DNA of 64,000 bases from an uncultured delta proteobacterium (GCA_963775425.1 CAVZJB010000005.1:224001-288000), one strand, 5' to 3'; counted from the first letter of the stretch, positions 3,508 through 14,300 are shown. The notes: generated from the sequence alone by a model not told the origin. Numbers and translations are program-made.

Positions 3508-3890
3508 CGCGAGGCCGTCCCTCGACGAGGCTCGACGCCGACCCGGGTGAGCACCGCTTCGGCGGCGAGGGCGAAGCCGACGCCGGCGCCGATGCCGAGC
3601 GCGTCGTAGGCGAGGTCGCCGAACGACGGGGTGCCGAAGCCGGCCAGGTCGAGCGACTCCTTGCCGAGGGACACGGCAGCGCCCGCAGCGGCGCCGGCGA
3701 CGACGCGGGCCCACAGCGGCGCGTCGAGGGCGCCGGCCGCGGCCCACGCGCCGCCGGTGACGGCGACGTTCGCCGCGAAGTGCTCGAGCTTGTCGGTGCC
3801 CGAGATGTCGTCGAGGCCGCGGACGCGTTGCAGTTGGGCGGGCGCGGAGGACGCGATGACGAGGGCCACTGCGATGAGCGAACAGGCCAT
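3351..3890 (-). CDS. YfiM/DUF2279-like membrane or exported protein
   Basis: Signal-like N-terminus; DKLEHF...SLGKESLD...SFGDLAYDALG fits the family pattern DKxxHF...GKExxD...DLxxD. Confidence 0.65.
   Translation of the reverse strand: MACSLIAVALVIASSAPAQLQRVRGLDDISGTDKLEHFAANVAVTGGAWAAAGALDAPLWARVVAGAAAGAAVSLGKESLDLAGFGTPSFGDLAYDALGIGAGVGFALAAEAVLTRVGVEPRRGTASRYSAALSPPPAPPPSSPAPPPPPSPAPPPPSSPAPPPPSSPASSAAPTPGAG
3385..3480. repeat. 24-bp tandem repeat GCGGGTGACGACGGCGGCGGCGGC, about 4 copies
   Basis: Copies start at 3385, 3409, 3433 (one variant codon) and 3457 (shortened). Confidence 0.9.
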
Positions 3891-3948
3891 GGCAGGACGC
3901 TACCGCCGCAAACTGTCGCGGCGCGAACCGCCCGGCTATGGTCGAGGC

Positions 3949-5499
3949 ATGAGCGCCGCGGAGGAGGCAGGGCAGGCATCCGTCGTCACCCGCGTCTTCC
4001 CGCAAGCGTTCGGCCGCTACGTGCTCCTGCATCCGCTCGCCCGAGGGGGGATGGGCGCGGTCTTCCTCGCCAAGTACGCGGGCAACGCCGCGGCGTTCGA
4101 GCGCTTCTGCGTCATCAAGACCCTGCAGCGCCAGCTCACGGAGGACCCGGAGGCCGTGCGCCGCTTCTTCGACGAGCTCAAGGTCGTCGCCCAGCTCAAC
4201 CACAGGAACATCTGCTCCATCTTCGACGCCGGCGCCGTCGACGGCCGCTGCTACTTCGCCATGGACCACGTCGCCGGCGTCGACCTGCAGGCGCTCACCG
4301 AGCGATGCAGGCGAAACGGCGCGCCGCTGCAGCCCGCGCTCATCGTGCACATCATCGGGGAGGTGCTCGAGGCGCTCGGCTACGCCCACCGCCTCATCGA
4401 CGGCGTCACCGGGCGCCCCCTGGGCATCGTTCATCGCGACATCTCACCGCACAACGTGCTCGTGAGCTTCGAGGGAGAGGTCAAGCTCATCGACTTCGGC
4501 CTCGTCGTGTCGCGTTTGAAGACCAACCGCACGCAGCCCGACGTGGTGGTCGGCAAGGTCGCGTACATGTCGCCCGAGCACGCGTCCGGCAATCCCGTCG
4601 ATGCGCGCGCGGATCAGTACTCGGCCGCCGTCGTCGCCGCCGAGCTGTTCACCAACAGTGAGTTCTACGCCGACGTCCCCAGCCAACAGGCCATGTGGGC
4701 GCGCGCGGCCATGGGCGGTCACCGCCCACCCGGCTTCGCCGCGCTCGACCCCGCGCTGCGCGCCATCCTCGACCGCGCGTTGCAACCGAGCGCCGACAAT
4801 CGCTTCGACTCGTGCGAGGACCTGCGCGACGCCCTCGACGGGTGGGCCGCGCGCGCCGGGCTCCACGCGACGCCGCGCGCCCTCCGGGAGCTCGCGCGCA
4901 CCCACTTCGGCGCCGAGGCCGACGAGCGCCGCCTCCTCCTCGCGAGCTTCTCGGACATCAGCGCCGCCCCCGAGCGCGCGCCGGCGACCGCGGTCGCCCC
5001 CGCCGCGCTGCCGACGTTCACGAGCCCGCCGCTCACGCCGATGGCGCTCGCGTCGCCGTCGCCGCCGCGGAGGCCTTCGGCCCTCGAGGCGCCGACGGTG
5101 CTCGCGATCGAGGAGCCGCGCCGGCGGGCCCCCGACAGCGCGCCTGTCGTCATCGGCGTCGAGCAGGTGGCGCGCATGCAGGAGGCGCCGCCGCACCAGC
5201 GGGCCGTCGCGGGGGGCGGCTTCGAGGCCGCCCTGCGCGCGCTGCCGAAAGCGAGCGCGGGCGCCACCGAGGTCGTCGTGCGCGCGCCCGTCGACGACAC
5301 CGGCGAGTATCGGCCCGTTCCCCCGGTGCCGGTGATCGAGCGCGGCCGCTCCCTGCGGTCGCCGAACGAGCGCGGCCGCTCCGCCGCCGTCGGCGTCATC
5401 GCGCTCGTCGTCGTCCTCGCCGCATGCGCGCTGATCGCGGGCCAACGCCTCGGCTATGTCGACTTCCCCGCGCTCGCGTCGCTGGTCGGCCGTCCGTAG
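3949..5499 (+). CDS. Ser/Thr protein kinase with Pro-rich linker and C-terminal TM helix
   Basis: LARGGMGAVF, VIK, HRDISPHN, DFG, GKVAYMSPE; hydrophobic C-terminus. Confidence 0.95.
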   Translation: MSAAEEAGQASVVTRVFPQAFGRYVLLHPLARGGMGAVFLAKYAGNAAAFERFCVIKTLQRQLTEDPEAVRRFFDELKVVAQLNHRNICSIFDAGAVDGRCYFAMDHVAGVDLQALTERCRRNGAPLQPALIVHIIGEVLEALGYAHRLIDGVTGRPLGIVHRDISPHNVLVSFEGEVKLIDFGLVVSRLKTNRTQPDVVVGKVAYMSPEHASGNPVDARADQYSAAVVAAELFTNSEFYADVPSQQAMWARAAMGGHRPPGFAALDPALRAILDRALQPSADNRFDSCEDLRDALDGWAARAGLHATPRALRELARTHFGAEADERRLLLASFSDISAAPERAPATAVAPAALPTFTSPPLTPMALASPSPPRRPSALEAPTVLAIEEPRRRAPDSAPVVIGVEQVARMQEAPPHQRAVAGGGFEAALRALPKASAGATEVVVRAPVDDTGEYRPVPPVPVIERGRSLRSPNERGRSAAVGVIALVVVLAACALIAGQRLGYVDFPALASLVGRP

Positions 5500-5502
5500 A
5501 CG

Positions 5503-6426
5503 TCAGGCGCCCGGCGGCAACAAGGACGCGAGCGCCGCGTGCACCTGGCGGATGCTCTGCGGGCGATCGGCGGGGGACTTCTTGAGACACGCGAGCACGA
5601 GCGCGTCGAGCGCCGGCGGCACCGCGTCGAGGTCGGCGGGCCGCTGGCGGCTCGGTGCGGAGGCCTCGACGGTGGCGATGGCCCGCAGGAGCTTCTGCGT
5701 CGAGGCCTCGTCGAACGGCAGGCGGCCGGTGAGCGCCTCGTACAGGAGCACGCCGAGGCCGTAGACGTCGGCGCGGTTGTCGAGGTCGGCGGTGCCGAGG
5801 AGCTGCTCGGGCGCCATGTAGCCGGGGGTGCCGAGCTGGCGGCCGAGGGCGGTCTGGTGGCGCCGGTCGAGCGAGTTGTCGAGGAGCTTGGCGACGCCGA
5901 AGTCGAGCACCTTGACGAGCTCGCCGCCGTCGCGCCGCGCGAGGAAGACGTTCTCCGGCTTGAGGTCTCGGTGCACGAGCGCGGCGTCGTGGACGGCCGC
6001 GAGCGCGCTGGCGACGGCGACGGCGACGCCGACCGCGCGCGCGACGGACAGCGGGCCCTCCTCGTCGAGGGCTTCGGCGAGCGTACGTCCCTCGAGCAGC
6101 TCCATCACGAAGCCCGGCGGCCACGGCGGCGCGTCCACGAAGTCGGCGACGGCGACGACGTTCACGTGGGCGAGGCTGGCGATGGCGTCGGCCTCGAGGA
6201 AGAAGCGGCTGACGACGTCGGCGTCGAAGGCGTAGCGCGCACGCAGCACCTTCATCGCGAACACCTGGCCCGAGCCGACGTGCTCCACGCGGTACACCCA
6301 GCCCATCCCACCGGACGCGATCTGCTCGACGACCTTGTAGCCGCCGACGACGTCACCGGCGCGCGGCTTGTTCGCGTTGTTGCCGGTGGAGTCGCCCGAC
6401 GGTGTGGAGAGTCGCCTGCGGCGCAT
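5503..6426 (-). CDS. Ser/Thr protein kinase (kinase domain only)
   Basis: IASGGMGWVY, AMK, HRDLKPEN, DFG, GTPGYMAPE. Confidence 0.95.
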   Translation of the reverse strand: MRRRRLSTPSGDSTGNNANKPRAGDVVGGYKVVEQIASGGMGWVYRVEHVGSGQVFAMKVLRARYAFDADVVSRFFLEADAIASLAHVNVVAVADFVDAPPWPPGFVMELLEGRTLAEALDEEGPLSVARAVGVAVAVASALAAVHDAALVHRDLKPENVFLARRDGGELVKVLDFGVAKLLDNSLDRRHQTALGRQLGTPGYMAPEQLLGTADLDNRADVYGLGVLLYEALTGRLPFDEASTQKLLRAIATVEASAPSRQRPADLDAVPPALDALVLACLKKSPADRPQSIRQVHAALASLLPPGA

Positions 6427-6499
6427 CAACGCTCCGCTCGAACGCGGTCCCGGCGGCGCGGGCGTCTCGTCGGGAGCATTGGCGTACTATACCTTCCAC

Positions 6500-8254
6500 G
6501 TGGAGAAACCGGTCCTCGGCCTCGACTTCGGCACCACCAAGATGATCGCTGCCTGGATCGGCGCCGACGGCAAGGTGGTCTTTGCCGCGGGCGACGAAGG
6601 GGTGAGCGAGATCCCTTCGGTGGCGTCGTACCAGGGCACGCGCGGCTCCACCGTGCTCGGCACGGAGGCGCGAAAGCTCTTCTCCATCGATCCCAAGCGC
6701 ACGGTGGTGGGCGTGAAGCGCTTCCTCGGACGGCGCTTCCAGTCGGACTTCGTCGGCCGCAGCCGGCAGCAGTTCTTCTACCCGCTCGTCGAGGGACCGG
6801 GCGGGCTCACCGCCGTCGAGCAGCGCGGCGAGATCATCCCGCTCGAGAGGGTGGCGGCGCGGCTGGTGGGACAGATCGTCGAGCACGCCAACGCCGGCCT
6901 CGGCGTGCCCTTCGAGCAGTGCGTGGTCGCGTGCCCCGCGCACTTCACGCAGCGGCAGCGGCGCGCGCTGAAGGAGGTGGTGGAGTCGTGTGGCCTCGAG
7001 GTCGTCGCCATGATCCTCGAGCCCACCGCCGCGGCGCTCACGCTCCCGGACCCCGACCGCGAGCGCACGCTGCTCGTGTACGACCTCGGCGGCGGCACGT
7101 TCGACACCACGGTTTTGCGCGTGGAGTCAGGCGTGGTGCGCGTGCTCGCCACCGGCGGCGACGCGCTCCTCGGTGGTTTCGAGCTCGATCAGAAGATCGC
7201 CGCCGAGCTCATCGACATCTTCAAGCGGGACCACGGCGTCGACCTGCGCGACAACCCTCTCGCGATGCACACCCTCGTCGACGCGGTGGAGGCGGCCAAG
7301 ATCGCGCTCACCACCGCCGACAGCGCGCCGCTCTCCGTCACGCTCGTGGACCAAAAGCGCGGCTTGATCACGCTCGAACGCACGCTCACGCGCGGCGAGT
7401 TGGACGCGTTCGTGGCGCCGCTCGTGGAAAAGACCATCGGCATCGCCCAGGACGCGTTGAAGCAAGCGGGCCTCACGCCGGCGGAGCTCGACGACGTGCT
7501 CGTCGTCGGCAGCCAGACGCGCATGCCCTACATCCAAAAGCGCGTCACCGAGGCCTTCGGCAAGACGCCCAACCCGTCCGTGGATCCCACCCGCTGTGTC
7601 GCGGTGGGGGCCGCCGTCCTCGGGGGCGCCGAACAGATGCTCTTCGACGCGCTCGCGATGCCCATCTGCCTGATGTCGCCCGGGGCCGCGCCCCTCGAGC
7701 TGCTCCCCAAGAACACCCGCGTGCCCGCGACGCTCGCAAACGAGCTCGAGCGGCCGCCGGGGCCGCTCCTCGGCGTCGTCTATGAGGCCACCGACGTCGC
7801 CGCCATCGACCGCGACGTCCTCGGCCGCCTGGTGCTCCCCGCCGACTGGCACGCCACCCACCCCGGCCCGTACACGCTCGAGGTGCGGTGCACCGCCGCC
7901 TTCGATCTGTCCTTCGCCGTGTCCGCCGGCGGCGAGCGCGTCGCGCTGTCGCTCGATGATCCCGCGCGCCCGGCGTCGCCGGCGCCGTCGGCCGAGCGCG
8001 CGTGCGACCTCGCTTGCATGGTGCGCACGTCCGCCGGCGGCGCCCCGGTGCCCATGAAGGCCGTGCGCGTCGGCCCCACCGCCATGGCGCTCGAGGGACG
8101 CGCGCTGCCCGCCGGCCCCGTCGAGGTCTCCGTGCGCCGCGGCCGCGACATCCACGTCGTCCGCGGCACGGTCGACGCCGCCAACGCCCGGGCGGTGCGC
8201 CTGCAGCCGGGCGACGCTCTCACCAGGCTCCTCGCGTCGCTGCCTCCGGCGTAG
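6500..8254 (+). CDS. Hsp70/DnaK-family paralog with reduced substrate-binding domain and extra C-terminal beta domain
   Basis: GLDFGTT, VKRFLG, PAHFTQRQR, EPTAAAL, VYDLGGGTFD, GSQTRMP, VAVGAA. GTG 6500 chosen to avoid overlap with the divergent kinase. Confidence 0.9.
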   Translation: MEKPVLGLDFGTTKMIAAWIGADGKVVFAAGDEGVSEIPSVASYQGTRGSTVLGTEARKLFSIDPKRTVVGVKRFLGRRFQSDFVGRSRQQFFYPLVEGPGGLTAVEQRGEIIPLERVAARLVGQIVEHANAGLGVPFEQCVVACPAHFTQRQRRALKEVVESCGLEVVAMILEPTAAALTLPDPDRERTLLVYDLGGGTFDTTVLRVESGVVRVLATGGDALLGGFELDQKIAAELIDIFKRDHGVDLRDNPLAMHTLVDAVEAAKIALTTADSAPLSVTLVDQKRGLITLERTLTRGELDAFVAPLVEKTIGIAQDALKQAGLTPAELDDVLVVGSQTRMPYIQKRVTEAFGKTPNPSVDPTRCVAVGAAVLGGAEQMLFDALAMPICLMSPGAAPLELLPKNTRVPATLANELERPPGPLLGVVYEATDVAAIDRDVLGRLVLPADWHATHPGPYTLEVRCTAAFDLSFAVSAGGERVALSLDDPARPASPAPSAERACDLACMVRTSAGGAPVPMKAVRVGPTAMALEGRALPAGPVEVSVRRGRDIHVVRGTVDAANARAVRLQPGDALTRLLASLPPA

Positions 8255-8276
8255 GGCTGCGGAGGGGGGGGCGCGC

Positions 8277-8798
8277 TCAGCGCACGGCGGCGGAGCTTCG
8301 GACGTCGCGGACGACCAGCGTGTTGGTGCGCTCGTCGACGGTGACCGTCCCCCGCGGCGACAACAGCGCCTTCACCTTGTCGGCCATCTCCCTGGCCGGC
8401 GTGTAGTTGCAGGGGATGAGGCGCGTGACGAGCGGACCGGAGCGCTCGCGCCGGGCGGCGAGGTCGAGGGCGCGCTCCTCGGCGGCGTCGAGCGCGGCCT
8501 GGGGGGCGATGAAGATGATGTCGCCGTCCCTCTGCGAGCCGAAGCCCTTGGTGCGCAGGATGACCTCGAGGGCCTGGTCCCACGGCACGTCCGCGAGCTT
8601 GATGGTGACCTTGCCCTTGATGTCGTCGCCGAACACGATGTTCTTGCCGCTGACGTCGCCGATGAGCCGCAGGACGTTGCCGATGTCCGCGTTTTGCAGG
8701 TCGATGGTGATCTTCTTGCCCGTATAGCGGTGCCCCGGCGGCCTGGCCGTGGCGGCGAGCGAGAGCGACAGGGCGACCGCGATGAGCCAGAAGCGCAT
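8277..8798 (-). CDS. Stand-alone secretin N-terminal (STN/N0 + N1) protein, PilQ-like, no barrel domain
   Basis: Signal peptide, then YTGKKITIDLQNADIGNVLRLI...VPWDQAL...LLSPRGTVTVDERTNTLVVRD, then stop. Confidence 0.85.
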   Translation of the reverse strand: MRFWLIAVALSLSLAATARPPGHRYTGKKITIDLQNADIGNVLRLIGDVSGKNIVFGDDIKGKVTIKLADVPWDQALEVILRTKGFGSQRDGDIIFIAPQAALDAAEERALDLAARRERSGPLVTRLIPCNYTPAREMADKVKALLSPRGTVTVDERTNTLVVRDVRSSAAVR

Positions 8799-8830
8799 GT
8801 CCACCTCCGGCGGCCGCCGCCCCTGGGCCG

Positions 8831-9292
8831 CTACCCCTGGGTTCGGGCCGTGAACGCGAAGAGCATCGCCGGTCCGCCGCGGTGGGGGACGGCGACGAAG
8901 ATGGTGCCGCCGTTGGGCACCGCGACGAGGGTGTCGAATTTCAAGGCGCTGATGGACAGCTGGAAGCGCAGCTTGCCGCCCGCCTGTTTGCCGTGGGCGG
9001 CCACCTGGAGGAAGCGCCGGCCGCCCTTGTGGCCCTTGGGCTGCGGGATCTCCAGGGAGACGCGCTCCCCGGGGCGGATGGCGGTGGTCTGCGCGTCGAG
9101 GAGCTTGAGCTCCTTGAAGGGGAGCGCCTTGAGGTCCTTGGCGAACGCGCGCAGCCGCGGGTCCACGTGCTGCGAGGCGCCGCCGGGGCCGGGGACGCCC
9201 TCGATGACGCGCAGCTCGACGAGGTAGCGCTCGGAGGGGGCGTCGGCGGGCGCGTGCAGGGACATCACGGCGGTGAGGGCCAGGAGAATCAC
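8831..9292 (-). CDS. Exported beta-rich protein, possible miniature secretin-like domain
   Basis: Signal peptide; YLVELRVIE ... FDTLVAVPNGGTIFV ... MLFAFTAR; starts 1 bp after the anti-sigma stop. Confidence 0.7.
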   Translation of the reverse strand: MILLALTAVMSLHAPADAPSERYLVELRVIEGVPGPGGASQHVDPRLRAFAKDLKALPFKELKLLDAQTTAIRPGERVSLEIPQPKGHKGGRRFLQVAAHGKQAGGKLRFQLSISALKFDTLVAVPNGGTIFVAVPHRGGPAMLFAFTARTQG

Positions 9293-9293
9293 G

Positions 9294-10445
9294 TCAGGTC
9301 CCCTGCTCGTCGTCGGCGTCCACCCAGATGACGGTGATGTTGGAGCTCTCCGTGGAGAACACCACCGTGGTGTCGGTGGCGTCGATGGCCTCGACGTCGG
9401 CGGAGTTGTCGGCGAGCACCGGCAGGTCCGTGTTGGGGACGGCGGTGGGCGCCTCGGCGAGCACCTCGGGCGCCAGCTCGCGCACCAGCTCGTCGGTGGT
9501 GGCCTCGCGCGTGGCCACGGTGTCGCCGCCCTTCTCGCTCACGCCCGAGGGGCCGCGCACGACGAAGAACAGCGCGGCGGCGCCGGCGGCGAACGCGAGC
9601 GGCGCGCGGGCGGGGGCGAAGGCGCGCCACAGCCGCGACAACAGCGGCTCCGCGGGGGCCATGGCGCGGTCCGCGCCTCCGCCCCGGGCGGCGAGCCCCT
9701 GGCTCTGCAGGGCTTCGACGGCCTGGACGGCGGCGGCGCCGGCCTTGGCCGCGGCCTGCGCGAACGCCGGGCTGTCGACGGCGGCGCGCAGGGCCTCGCC
9801 GACGTGCGCCGTCGACGCGAGCGCGAGCAGCTCGCCCGCTTCGTCGTGGCGCGCGAGCAGCCCGTCGAGCTCCGCGGACTCCGCCGGCGTGAGCGCGGCG
9901 TCGATGTCGGCGGAGGCGAGGACGAAGAGCCGCTCGCGGGCGGCCACCTGGGCCGCCACCTGATCCGGCAGCGCCGCGAGGCCGTCGACGACGGAGCCGA
10001 TGTGGGCGACGGCGCGCGCGGCGCTCTGCACCGCCTCCGTCGATGCAACGAAGCCCGCCAGGGCGGGGGCCAGGGCGGGCTTGTGCTGCAGGATGGTGTC
10101 GAGGTGGTCGCGGCCGGCGCCGTCGAGCGCGTCGTCGACGAAGAGGTTGGCGAGCTCGAGGACGCCCGCCTCGGTGGCCGGGATCTGCGCGGGGGCCGTG
10201 GCGCCGAGGATGGAGGCCGTGAGGTCTTCGGCCTCGTCCGCCGTCAGCGAGGCGGGCGACAGCGGGCTGTCGAGGCGGGCGGCGCTCATGGCCTCGAAGG
10301 CCTGGAGGAGGGCCGGGTCTTGGCTCAGTGCGTCAAGAACGGCGGGCTCATCGTCGGCCGGCAGCTCGCCGTCGAGGTACGCGCTGAGCATCATCAGCAG
10401 CGCCTCCCGCTCGAGCTTCTTTTCGACCTTGCCGGCCATGTCCAT
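9294..10445 (-). CDS. Transmembrane anti-sigma factor (zinc-free ASD-like repeats)
   Basis: LSAYLDGEL motif; TM LAFAAGAAALFFVV; directly downstream of the ECF sigma. Confidence 0.8.
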   Translation of the reverse strand: MDMAGKVEKKLEREALLMMLSAYLDGELPADDEPAVLDALSQDPALLQAFEAMSAARLDSPLSPASLTADEAEDLTASILGATAPAQIPATEAGVLELANLFVDDALDGAGRDHLDTILQHKPALAPALAGFVASTEAVQSAARAVAHIGSVVDGLAALPDQVAAQVAARERLFVLASADIDAALTPAESAELDGLLARHDEAGELLALASTAHVGEALRAAVDSPAFAQAAAKAGAAAVQAVEALQSQGLAARGGGADRAMAPAEPLLSRLWRAFAPARAPLAFAAGAAALFFVVRGPSGVSEKGGDTVATREATTDELVRELAPEVLAEAPTAVPNTDLPVLADNSADVEAIDATDTTVVFSTESSNITVIWVDADDEQGT

Positions 10446-10460
10446 GTTCTCCCGGGCTCG

Positions 10461-11258
10461 TCAGGAATGACGTTTCTTCTCGCCGCCTTCTTCATCCGCG
10501 CCCGCGGGATCCCCGGCCCCGCCCTTGCGGCTCGTGGGGGCGCCCGCGCCGTCGTCCGGCAGCCCCAAAAACGGCCGCAGCAAGCGCTGCATGTTCTTTC
10601 GGGCGTGGAACAGGCGGCTCATGACGGTTCCCCGTGGAATTCCCAGCGTATCGGCGATCTCCTCGTACGACATCCCCTCCACCTCCCGGAGCAGGAGGAT
10701 GGACTTGTGGTCCTCCGACAAACCGGCGAGCGCACGGCCGATCTCCGCCCCGAGCTCCTTGTCGGCCGCGGTCTTCAGGGGGTTTGCGCCCCCCAGCCGG
10801 CCGGTGATGTCGGCGTCGGCGTACAAGGAGTCGTCGCCGGTGAGGGCGTCGTCGAGATCGACCTTCCTGCGGCGGGCGTCCGCGCGCTTCTTGTCGATGC
10901 AGAGGTTGACGCAGATCCGGTACAGCCACGTCGAGAACGCGGCGTTGCCTTCGAACTCGCCGAGCTTCTTGTGGGCCTTGATGAAGGCGTCCTGCACGAC
11001 GTCCATGGCGTCGTCGCGGTCGCGCAGCATGCCGTACGCGACGGCGAACAGCCGCGACTGGTGCAGCTCCACGAGCCTCTTGAACGCGGCCGCGTCGCCG
11101 GCGCGGGCCTTGTCCACCAGCTCCTGGTCGCGCGCGCGATCTTTGGCCCGGGCCTCGCCCTCGGTCTTGCTCCTGGCGCGCGCCCGCTCCAGGGCGTCCC
11201 GGGCGCGCCGCACCTGGCCCTCGCCTGCCTCCGGATCGACCTTCCGCGCCACGGTCAT
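10461..11258 (-). CDS. ECF RNA polymerase sigma factor
   Basis: DAMDVVQDAFIKA, AFSTWLYRICVNLCID, LREVEGMSYEEIA..LGIPRGTVMSRLFHAR. Confidence 0.95.
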   Translation of the reverse strand: MTVARKVDPEAGEGQVRRARDALERARARSKTEGEARAKDRARDQELVDKARAGDAAAFKRLVELHQSRLFAVAYGMLRDRDDAMDVVQDAFIKAHKKLGEFEGNAAFSTWLYRICVNLCIDKKRADARRRKVDLDDALTGDDSLYADADITGRLGGANPLKTAADKELGAEIGRALAGLSEDHKSILLLREVEGMSYEEIADTLGIPRGTVMSRLFHARKNMQRLLRPFLGLPDDGAGAPTSRKGGAGDPAGADEEGGEKKRHS

Positions 11259-11357
11259 CGGTACGTCCAACCCCTGAGCACGCCCTTGTGACGATCCGCG
11301 GGTGCGAACCAACCACGCCCGCAATATGACACGATTCACACGAGAGAGCCCGCCCGA

Positions 11358-14300
11358 ATGGCCGACGCCCAACAGACCGCCCAGACGCCGCCGCCCGCGC
11401 CGCGCCCCCCGCCGCGCGGGATCGAACCGGTGGCGCCGGCGCGCTTTGACGACGTGCTGCGCAGCGCGCGCCTGCGCCTCGGCGCGCTCGCCGTCCTCGA
11501 GCTCCTCCTCGCGGGCGCCGCCGGCGTGGCCGCCGGCCTCGTCGTCGCCGCCGTCGTCGTCGGGGTCGCGCCGTACTCCACGGCGCTCCGCGTCCTCCTC
11601 GTGGCGCTGTTGCCCGCGGGCTTCCTCGCGGCGGCGGCGGCAGTGCTCGCGCGGCGCGTGTGGCCGCTCAAGCACGACCTCGTCGTCGGCGCCGCCCTCG
11701 AGGCGTCGCTGCGCCGGCGCGGCGCCGAGCTCGGCGACATGGTGCGCGGCGCCGTGGAGCTGCGCGACGCCGCGCAGGACGGAGCGCGCGGCCGCTCCCG
11801 CGCCCTGTGCGAGGCGCATGTCGCGGCCACCACCGCCCGCGTCGTCGACGGCGGCGGCCTGCGCTCCTTGCCCGGCGTCGCGCTCGAGCGCGCGGTCCCC
11901 ACGCTCGCGTGCGCCGGCGTCGTCGGCTTCGTGCTGCTCGCGTGGATCATCGCGTTTTCGGCGTCATGGCAGTCGCGCTTCGACAAGCTGTTCTCCGACG
12001 CCGGCCGCGAGCGCGCCCTCGAGGAGCGTGCCGCGTCGCTCTTGCCGCTGGTCACCGACCTCAAGCTCACGCTGCGCTTCCCCGCGTACATGCAGGAAAA
12101 CGACGAGGTCATCCCGGGCTCTTCCGGCGACGTCACCGCCCCGCGCGGCACCGAGGTCGTCGTCGAGGGCCGCGCGGACCGCGCGCTCGAGAAGGCGAGC
12201 GTGCTCGTCGGCGACGAGGAGCTGCAGGCCAAGGTGAACGGCGCCGATCTCGTGGCGCGCTTCGTCGTGAACGAGAGCACCACCTATCGCTTCCGGATCG
12301 ACGGCGCGCGCGGCGGCGCCGAGCTCGATCCGGTGGCGCACAAGATCGCCGTCACGCCGGACACCGCGCCCGTGGTGACGCTCGAGGAGCCGGGCGAGGA
12401 CCGCACCGTGAAGCTCGAGGACACCGTCCCGCTCGCCTTCTCGGCGAAGGACGACGTCGGCGTCACCAGGTTCCGCGTGGTGGTGAAGCGGCAGGGGAGC
12501 GCGCTCGAGCCGTACACCGATGACCTGATGGAGGTGCCCGGCGGGCTGCGCGAGGCGCACGGCACCGGCAAGCTCAAGATCGAGGACACCGGCGCGCGCC
12601 CCGGCGACAAGCTCTCCGTCTACATCGAGGCCGTCGACAACGACGCCATCAGCGGCCCCAAGGCCGGCCGCTCGGCCACGCGCGTGCTCACGGTGTTCTC
12701 CGCGCTCGAGCAGCACCGCGCCATGATCGCCCGCCTCGACGACGTGGAGTCGCGCATGGTGGACTCGCTCGGCGACGAGCTGGAGGCGCCCCTCGCGGAG
12801 CTCTCCGCGGACGTCGCTGAGCAGAAGCAGGCCGTGGACAAGCACCAGCAGATCGCCGTGCGCCACCAGGCGATGCAGAAGGCCCTCGACGACGCCGTGC
12901 TCGCCTTGTCGCAGGACGAGATGGCGGTGGTCTCCATGCGGCGCGCGCTCGCCAACATGAAGCTCAAGGTGGGCCGCGCCGTCGACCACAAGGCCCGCGC
13001 GCTCTCGGAGCTCGCGTTCAAGACGCGCGCGAGCGTGCCCGCGAACAAGGGCGTGCGCGCGCGCCTGGCGTTCGCGCAGAAGGGGCTCGTCGAGCGGCTC
13101 GAGCAGGACGTGCTCTATCTCGACGACCTGCTGCAGCGCGAGCGCATCGCCGAGGCGCGTCAGGTGGCCCAGGACCTCAAGCGCGCGCAGGAAGACCTGA
13201 AGGCGCTCGTCGACCAGTTCAAGAAGTCCGGCGACGACGCCACGCGCCGCGCGCTGCTCCAGCAAATCCAGGAGATGCGCGCGCAGATGGAGAAGCTCCT
13301 CGAGCGGCTGGCCGAGCTGCAGCACGAGGTGCCCGACGAGTACCTGAACAGCGAGGCCTTCCCCGACGAAAAGATGCTGAGCAACGCCTCCGACATCGAC
13401 AAGCTCATCGAGGAGGGCAAGCTCGACGACGCGGCCAAGAAGCTCGAGGAGATGCTCAAGGCCACGCAGAAGCTCGTCGACAACCTCGACAAGGACGCGG
13501 ACCAATACGGCGGCGACGAGTACAAGGAGCTGCGCGACAAGATGCAGCGCTTCAGCGACGATCTGCAGGCGCTGCAAGAGGGCCAGCAGCAGAACCTCGC
13601 GCAGAGCCAGGCGCTCATGGACCGCGCCAAGCGGCAGGCGGAGGAGCGGCTGAAGGGCAAGCTCGACAAGGCGCTCGCCGAGGTGAAGAAGAAGGTGGAG
13701 GCCGCCGAGAAGAAGCTCGACGGGATCGATCGCGACTCGCTGTTCTTGAACGAGAGCGAGGACGCGCTGTTCGCCAAGGCGCGCATCGACGACCTCAAGC
13801 GCGCGCTCGAGAGCAAGGACCTCGAGGACGCCACCGGCGCGGCCGAGGAGGCGGAGGCGGCGGCGGAGTCGGCGCAGCGCAGCGTGGCGGATCGCGCGCG
13901 CGGGCGCTTCGGCCAGAAGGACAAGGCCACCGCCGCCGCGCGCGACGACCTCGACGAGGCGCACCAGGACCTCGACGAGGCCAGGCGCGCGCTCCAGGAT
14001 CTCCTGCCCAATCCGTCGAGCCTCCTCGACAAAAACGAGCGGCGGAAGCTCCAGAAGGGCGCCGACCTCGAGCAGCAATTGCGCGAAAACGCGGAGAAGC
14101 TCGGCAAGCTCATGGACGAGATCGGCAAGCAGGCGCCGGTGTTCGGCCCCGGCCACAAAAAGCACGTCGACTCCGCCCGGCGCTCCATGGAGCGCGCGGC
14201 GCGGCAGATGCGTGGGCAGGACTTGCGCAGCGCGCGGTCGTCGGAGCGGGCGGCGCTCCGCGAGCTCGGACAGTTGCAGAAGGACCTCGACCAGATGGGG

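Follow-up and report, generated by a model that had tools for sequence, protein, structure and literature searches.

A small exported protein of secretin-like fold in RseB's position: a candidate three-gene ECF envelope-signalling operon of Myxococcota

Pairs of an extracytoplasmic function (ECF) sigma factor and an anti-sigma factor are among the commonest signalling devices of bacteria, and for most of their groups we know of no account of what the periplasmic ends sense. Secretins, with which parts of the locus are compared below, combine N domains and secretin domain in a single chain, of which 12-15 copies assemble into a ring in the outer membrane, and the fold of RseB, the periplasmic protein of the RpoE/RseA/RseB system, is of a different nature. 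The RpoE/RseA/RseB type of Escherichia coli is ECF02, a group with a genomic context described in PMC7826278. Here we analyse a locus of four genes at positions 8,277 to 11,258 of a 64,000-nucleotide stretch of DNA (the window) from an uncultured delta proteobacterium (GCA_963775425.1 CAVZJB010000005.1:224001-288000). All four genes lie on the minus strand and encode, in order, an ECF sigma factor, a single-pass anti-sigma factor, an exported 153-residue protein that we call p153, and a short exported protein built from secretin N0 and N1 domains (Table 1). A sequence-only reading of the window had taken the last two genes for the halves of one secretin, encoded separately and in reverse order. 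The layout that it described, with gaps of 15, 1 and about 30 bp between four co-directional genes, was borne out: 15 bp separate the sigma and anti-sigma genes, 1 bp separates the anti-sigma gene from p153, and 26 bp separate p153 from N0-N1, or 32 bp if the latter starts at the ATG at 8798.

In our reading, the first three genes form an envelope-signalling operon that resembles RpoE/RseA/RseB and includes an accessory protein of secretin-like fold, with the N0-N1 gene standing apart from it; we put the probability of this at roughly 55%. The likeness to RpoE/RseA/RseB lies in the gene order (ECF sigma factor, single-pass anti-sigma factor, exported periplasmic protein), in the presence of RpoE among the best NCBIfam models for the sigma factor, and in a weak RseA_N match in the anti-sigma factor. 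The differences are that the sigma factor scores below the RpoE equivalog cut-off, that the third protein has no MucB_RseB match and a secretin-like fold rather than that of RseB, that the anti-sigma factor ends in a conserved tail of about 40 residues, that there is no RseC, and that regulated proteolysis is here a proposal. By analogy, the system appears to work most like RpoE/RseA/RseB, but it falls outside that type on both the sigma cut-off and the third protein.

The sigma factor matches Sigma70_r2 (E = 3.6e-18, residues 62-129), Sigma70_r4_2 (E = 5.8e-17, residues 172-223) and Sigma70_ECF (E = 6.1e-08), with no match to region 3 or region 1.2 in the Pfam scan, and it carries an N-terminal extension of about 45 residues and an acidic or Gly-rich C-terminal tail. 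With 109.3 bits against a cut-off of 42.9 for the NCBIfam model TIGR02937 (sigma70-ECF), it classifies as an ECF sigma factor, and its best equivalog models both stay below their cut-offs (PRK11922, 154.2 against 204; RpoE TIGR02939, 142.3 against 236.15). No numbered ECF group with a matching context was found in the accessible parts of PMC7826278 and its supplement, where a matching group may be missed. Two groups of Myxococcales or Deltaproteobacteria described there, ECF210 and ECF216, were considered and set aside because their contexts, as given in the same parts of that source (none, and carboxypeptidase-regulatory plus EF-hand, respectively), are unlike this locus.

On its cytoplasmic side, the anti-sigma factor has an N-terminal anti-sigma helix region and a long Ala-rich middle part; one transmembrane segment follows, and then a periplasmic part of about 87 residues, compared with 30-60 residues in other families. 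Its residues 19-52 match zf-HC2 (E = 0.0034, 17.9 against 22.2 bits) and RseA_N (E = 0.048, 14.6 against 24 bits), both below the Pfam cut-offs. An H-x3-C-x2-C zinc motif is absent from it, with no Cys at all in residues 1-60, and can be read in the translations of orthologues from other families; distant orthologues have thus kept a motif that this lineage has lost. The cytoplasmic part is also about 200 residues longer here than in the orthologues of loci L049-L061 (383 residues in total against about 175-195), and internal repeats within it are unsupported (z = -0.5, 2.5 and 1.5 against shuffled sequences).

Across loci, the gene lying between those for the sigma factor and p153 encodes anything from about 175 to 445 residues, of which the last 40 or so always form the same tail. 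In an alignment of 19 such tails (A2), upstream of which hydrophobic spans were located by a script, the motif T-[VI]-I-W is nearly invariant: T76 is invariant, and I78 and W79 are present in at least 90% of the sequences. The motif is single-copy in the source genome, with one match at E = 1.6e-15 among 63,302 six-frame open reading frames (ORFs) and the next at E = 0.034. The C-terminal tail is the only conserved periplasmic element of the anti-sigma factor, and its sequence pattern reads as beta-strand-forming.

The conserved unit is the sigma factor, the tail-bearing anti-sigma factor and p153, kept across many Myxococcota families. The p153 gene was found in 16 of the 41 nearest genomes and in 103 of 401 sampled Myxococcota genomes, in the latter sample once per genome with the exception of G010, where the gene is split across two contig ends; in the source genome, too, it is single-copy. 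Within the 401-genome sample it was found in none of the 172 genomes of family f14 and none of the 21 of family f6, which also gave no match to the tail (0/21); its matches there include complete genomes of families f10 and f19. Wherever the upstream flank suffices, a sigma gene lies upstream of p153: in 2/2 loci (L013, L015) and 7/7 loci (L022-L027, L031) of closer relatives, in 19/19 distant loci, the 20th ending 741 bp upstream, and in 5/5 metagenome loci. The genes downstream of p153 in other genera are unrelated ones (VIT-VWA, Lon, a large Ig-repeat protein, sulfatase), and the protein that always follows the tail-bearing anti-sigma factor is p153, not N0-N1. The p153 gene starts with a GTG one nucleotide past the anti-sigma stop codon, and the tight spacing of the trio is compatible with translational coupling.

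A profile of the tail matches 82 of the 401 genomes: tail and p153 both occur in 67 genomes, p153 only in 36, the tail only in 15, and neither in 283. Where both occur, the tail match is always on the strand of p153 and ends between a few and about 230 bp upstream of it (67/67 genomes, coordinates compared by eye). Of the 15 tail-only genomes seven were fetched, and all seven hold a p153-family ORF directly downstream of the tail (E = 1e-9 to 4e-19). In family f19, the tail profile matches 0/67 genomes and 22 of the 23 p153 matches span only the N-terminal half of the profile; therefore, the tail and the C-terminal half of p153 have diverged together. Furthermore, a metagenomic protein of 269 residues, P0151, joins a zinc-type anti-sigma N-terminus (with H-x3-C-x2-C) and a transmembrane span directly to a p153 domain, dispensing with most of the tail and with the p153 signal peptide. 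It is the sole real fusion of the two that we found. Other apparent fusions, seen as long open frames, proved to be artefacts of stop-poor off-frames in GC-rich DNA, in which each p153 has its own signal peptide.

By sequence, p153 belongs to no described family: it matches none in Pfam (E up to 0.1) or NCBIfam (E up to 0.01), and its profile returned one chance match to PDB sequences (Mx1, E = 0.73). Its 91 homologues, of 110-215 residues, are all unnamed or 'hypothetical'; an exhaustive search over all proteins gave 266 representative clusters at E up to 1e-3, of which the best 150 all measure 75-269 residues. The nearest clusters in the Protein Atlas (scores 0.90-0.91) are likewise unnamed 'hypothetical protein' entries, commonest in Myxococcota and in one case in Candidatus Hydrogenedentota, with no named family near p153 there.

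Behind its hydrophobic N-terminus, p153, whose mature form is taken as residues 20-153, is mostly beta in its AlphaFold2 (AF2) model, which was built from 38 sequences and has nine strands and one helix, with a mean predicted local distance difference test score (pLDDT) of 88.6 and a predicted template-modelling score (pTM) of 0.78. In a fold search with VIA, which is independent of Foldseek and covered 48,161 chains, the 12 best matches are all secretins (Z = 7.4-10.8), including InvG (10.8), GspD (10.0), RcpA (9.8), XcpQ (9.8), Vibrio PilQ (9.6), pIV (9.6) and BfpB (7.4), as well as ExeD, an Acidithiobacillus secretin, the type II secretion entry 8co1, PulD and Pseudomonas PilQ. The alignments pair 102-125 residues within secretin ranges of 220-360 residues and cover about half of each domain; the next matches are FHA and viral glycoprotein beta-sandwich domains at Z of at most 6.7, and no RseB structure is among the 50 best. 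The ten best Foldseek matches in the PDB are again all secretins (E = 1.3e-3 to 4.8e-3). Comparing profiles with hhalign, p153 aligned to PilQ secretin domains over the first strand only (16 residues, probability 0.3%, not significant), and wider alignments gave 89 collinear columns with the PilQ secretin core (E = 0.0069, probability 5.6%). This weak alignment is collinear with the structural match and pairs the helix, the central strands and the 'GGT..V..P' strand of p153 with the genome's own PilQ. Because it skips a long stretch after the first strand, before the core helix, as well as the C-terminal Pro-Gly-rich motif of PilQ, p153 is predicted to be a secretin-core-like fold reduced to under half its size. 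The relation of p153 to secretins that the sequence-only reading had proposed thus survives at the level of the fold, but not in the form of one half of the secretin to which N0-N1 would belong.

The N0-N1 gene has a history of its own. Its product matches STN (E = 5.4e-12), type_II_gspD_N0 (E = 2.1e-08) and Secretin_N (E = 8.8e-10, profile positions 1-49 of 69). In it, a signal peptide is followed by an STN/N0 domain, then by a long helix and finally by an N1 domain, which ends after its third strand. Against the PilQ model TIGR02515 it covers positions 1-154 of 428 and scores 150.8 bits, below the cut-off of 284.35, and its residues 13-171 are 59% identical to the N0-N1 part of the full-length PilQ of the same genome, which is encoded on a different contig (C16) in a 924-residue open frame. 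The AF2 model (pLDDT 85.1) shows the N0 domain, the long helix and an N1 without its second helix, with Vibrio PilQ as the best Foldseek match (6w6m, E = 4.9e-12). An exported secretin fragment made only of N0 and N1, as the gene had been read from its sequence, is therefore what is found, with N1 partial.

Short N0-N1 forms make up a family of 46 clusters of 152-235 residues, and the 31 that were aligned share a hydrophobic N-terminal leader, a common end point after the third strand of N1 and a short conserved tail. Seven complete short ORFs of relatives have the same leader, end point and tail, so that the truncation point is kept across three families. A tree built from 27 N0-N1 segments groups the four syntenic short forms in one clade (93/92), the six other short forms in a second (82/81) and all but one of the 14 full-length PilQ segments in a third (94/94). 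It does not resolve how these three clades branch, and one outgroup row sits in it on a long branch among the full-length forms. A search of 41 relatives turned up short N0-N1 in the source order alone. It adjoins p153 in 6 of 44 loci (the window, 3/3 genomes of the sister genus g3 and 2/10 metagenome loci, against 0/10 and 0/20 of the other loci examined), a count in which some metagenome loci duplicate genome loci, and in six other genomes it lies beside unrelated genes (GNAT, histidine kinase, ThiF, MFS). N0-N1 came behind p153 only in the source genus and its sister genus. From these sequence relationships, we take the gene to be a separately conserved, truncated PilQ paralogue, holding N0 and three quarters of N1, that lies outside the conserved system.

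Two further observations concern these short forms. After the shared truncation point they carry a C-terminal tail, RDVRGS-x-AL-x-x (alignment A3), which ends in F, Y or W in many members but not in the window or in genus g3; an aromatic end of this kind recalls the C-terminal signals read by PDZ proteases. In genus g3, N0-N1 is followed on the same strand by genes for a radical-SAM protein, an unassigned 252-residue protein and a PilZ-domain protein, which are missing from that place in the window.

In the mechanism that we propose, p153 would take the place of RseB and pair with the anti-sigma tail in the periplasm. Its exposed sheet edges, which in real secretins are subunit-joining surfaces, would bind the tail by strand addition, and p153 bound in this way would shield the anti-sigma factor from proteolysis. 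An envelope signal would displace p153, whereupon the anti-sigma factor would be degraded and the sigma factor released. The divergent gene for a DUF4175 protein and its neighbour, which encodes an exported MA-clan zinc peptidase, form a candidate regulon, and the peptidase is a candidate for the cleavage step. In this lineage, N0-N1 would have been placed under the control of the sigma operon, presumably through co-transcription. For the N0-N1 protein itself, the likeliest target is the secretin machinery of type IV pili, where it could, for instance, bind proteins that interact with the N0 ring of PilQ.

A more specific version, which we consider clearly improbable, casts p153 as a monomeric relic of a secretin core that senses the assembly of secretins or other outer-membrane beta-proteins. 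At rest, the free sheet edges of p153 would hold the anti-sigma tail as a mimic of a secretin strand; secretin subunits awaiting assembly, or other beta-rich intermediates, would compete for these edges; and the freed tail would be proteolysed by the neighbouring MA-clan peptidase, switching the sigma factor on. A truncated PilQ N0-N1 would be a further product of the operon in this lineage, feeding back on assembly of the pilus secretin. If true, this would be a new kind of envelope-stress sensor derived from a domesticated pore subunit.

Other explanations assign the two exported proteins different roles. It is possible, if doubtful, that p153 is no regulator at all and is simply co-transcribed, the sigma operon ensuring the expression of a protein that oligomerises in the outer membrane to give a small ring or pore like that of secretins. 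Its fold does resemble that of a ring-forming pore subunit, it is exported and single-copy, and its role as a regulator is one that we infer; but the aligned residues fill only a part of the secretin ranges, the profile alignment lacks both the stretch after the first strand and the Pro-Gly-rich motif, the monomer model is compact (pTM 0.78), and a pore leaves the strict pairing with one specific anti-sigma tail without explanation. Highly improbable, in our judgement, is the proposal of the sequence-only reading that p153 and N0-N1 together make one secretin that acts as an outer-envelope sensor, its N0/STN domain signalling to the anti-sigma factor as FecA does to FecR. The adjacency of a secretin-domain-like p153 to an N0-N1 gene in the window, the three g3 genomes and two metagenome contigs speaks for it, as do the end of the short protein just before the second N1 helix, the start of mature p153 with a strand like the first of the PilQ secretin domain (over the 16 non-significant residues mentioned above) and the matches of the N0 model to the STN domains of FpvA and of a Parabacteroides anti-sigma factor (E of about 3e-3 to 4e-3). 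The synteny weakens it, however: N0-N1 is absent from the operon in 38 of the 44 loci and is not syntenic in most relatives, an outcome that this reading had itself named as telling against it. The two genes also differ greatly in range, p153 being phylum-wide and short N0-N1 found, among the 41 relatives searched, only in the source order, and in divergence, with N0-N1 at 59% identity to PilQ and p153 without significant similarity to the secretin domain of PilQ. Since they differ in age, range and divergence, we do not regard the two secretin-related genes as a split secretin.

Signalling in the manner of FecI/FecR/FecA fares no better. An STN-fold domain is indeed encoded beside an ECF sigma/anti-sigma pair and resembles the signalling domain of FpvA and that of an STN-bearing anti-sigma factor, but the anti-sigma factor has no FecR domain (Pfam, E up to 0.1) and a short periplasmic tail, no TonB-dependent plug or barrel is found among the 38 window ORFs scanned against Pfam, the 175-residue STN protein holds only STN/N0 and the partial Secretin_N, and the STN gene is not conserved with the sigma gene; for lack of a FecR domain, a TonB-dependent barrel and such conservation, the locus is not of this type. 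From secretins in general (PilQ, GspD, InvG, RcpA, phage pIV), which N0-N1 resembles through PilQ and p153 through the alignment of its model to the secretin domain of 12 different secretins, the locus differs in that the two are separate genes with separate histories, that p153 falls short of half a secretin domain in size and gives no match to the Pfam model Secretin (PF00263), and that N0-N1 has a truncated N1 and neither AMIN domains nor an S domain. That the N0-N1 gene is a functionless leftover of a duplicated PilQ, now decaying as a pseudogene fragment that the convergent Hsp70-like gene has cut off, is hardly credible. Its N1 is incomplete, and only 22 bp separate its stop codon from the end of the convergent gene, but the same truncation point and signal peptide recur in the 31 aligned short homologues and in three families, GC content at third codon positions (GC3) is 0.97, the short forms group in their own clades apart from full-length PilQ, and the model folds with pLDDT 85.1.

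Several points weigh against the three-gene operon with p153 as partner of the tail. We infer that contact from gene order, co-occurrence, co-divergence and one fusion; the genomes in the co-occurrence counts are related, so their independence is overstated, and P0151 is a single sequence on one 1,602-bp contig that could be an assembly artefact. The analogy to RseB is positional, p153 having no sequence or fold relation to that protein. As for the fold, the Foldseek E-values lie just above 1e-3 with query-normalised template-modelling scores of 0.13-0.42, the sequence similarity between p153 and secretins is not significant (no match to Pfam Secretin, E up to 0.1), and convergence rather than homology could explain the shared fold. 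No ECF-type promoter was recognised upstream of the sigma gene, where the sole conserved motif resembles a housekeeping extended -10 element. Moreover, N0-N1 is kept beside p153 in two genera and two metagenome contigs, where a functional link may exist, and the role that we favour for it is drawn from known secretins, in which N0 domains bind the HR domains of PilP or GspC and TsaP.

GC3 is 0.91-0.97 in all four genes, as in their neighbours, and the window as a whole has a GC content of about 70-79% in 1-kb windows. As the sequence-only reading had stated, no pilus or type II secretion family occurs among the window ORFs scanned. The DUF4175 gene lies divergent to the sigma gene in the window, in L013, L015, L022-L025 and L031 and in 9/20 distant loci, and the Peptidase_MA_2 gene lies next to it in the window, L024, L025 and L013 and in 9/20 distant loci. 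The peptidase matches Peptidase_MA_2 (E = 1.3e-15), TPR families and a C-terminal PEGA domain (E = 4.3e-05), and its HExxH motif was read from the translation. Upstream of sigma, the motif TGTCATA[GT]T or TGACATAGT, the latter being the form in L023, was seen in six of eight regions compared (window, L013, L015, L022, L023, L031) and not in L024 or L025. A consensus promoter scan of 8000-11600 found no promoter-like site, and the terminator-like matches in that scan fall only within genes.

Elsewhere, the gene convergent on N0-N1 (6368-8254, plus strand) encodes a protein with an Hsp70/DnaK-like ATPase domain (E = 7.8e-89) at residues 49-420, behind which some 200 residues match nothing in Pfam, and two Ser/Thr kinase genes lie just upstream of that gene (3631-5499, plus strand; 5503-6429, minus strand). 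Three g4-type loci (L031, L073, L080) carry PEGA-like fragments close to p153, on the strand opposite to it. The order that contains this 8.3-Mb genome also includes f6, a family of very small genomes (21 genomes, 0.3-3.4 Mb), in which 7/21 match the N0-N1 query weakly (E = 1e-9 to 1e-15), in long open frames.

Table 1 Coordinates of the features discussed (window positions, unless a locus is named)
Feature	Position	Strand	Basis
ECF (group 4) sigma factor, 265 aa	10461..11258	-	Pfam Sigma70_r2, r4_2, Sigma70_ECF; TIGR02937
Single-pass anti-sigma factor, 383 aa	9294..10445	-	Weak zf-HC2 and RseA_N; one transmembrane span; 15 bp after sigma
Anti-sigma transmembrane segment, residues 282-296	9558..9602	-	Hydrophobic run in translation
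Anti-sigma conserved periplasmic C-terminal tail, residues 341-383	9297..9425	-	Alignment A2, T-[VI]-I-W
p153, 153-aa exported protein, family uncharacterised	8831..9292	-	Homologue searches, AF2 model, fold searches
Short N0-N1 protein, 175 aa (173 aa from ATG at 8798)	8277..8804	-	Pfam STN, GspD_N0, partial Secretin_N
Divergent DUF4175 membrane and coiled-coil protein, 1059 aa	11358..14537	+	Pfam DUF4175 at 2e-14
Peptidase_MA_2, TPR and PEGA protein, 699 aa	14492..16591	+	Pfam; HEFTH zinc motif; hydrophobic N-terminus
TGTCATATT, extended -10-like motif, ~65 bp upstream of sigma start codon	11323..11331	-	Upstream-region comparison
Genes downstream of N0-N1 in genus g3	L015 1519-3420 (-); L013 6673-8587 (+)		Radical-SAM, 252-aa protein, PilZ-domain

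A full-text literature search returned no description of the module or of either the p153 or the short N0-N1 family, nor did the accessible parts of PMC7826278 and its supplement, and the reduced-secretin architecture of p153 is undescribed in the libraries searched (Pfam, NCBIfam, PDB sequences). What the locus adds is an ECF module whose accessory protein belongs to a new family with a secretin-like fold and, separately, a family of truncated, free N0-N1 proteins. The module is phylum-wide in Myxococcota, and in it one small exported protein always accompanies a short anti-sigma tail; the second family is a conserved set of free-standing, truncated PilQ N0-N1 proteins. Both families give a concrete, testable way into the question of how myxobacteria keep watch over envelope and pilus secretin.

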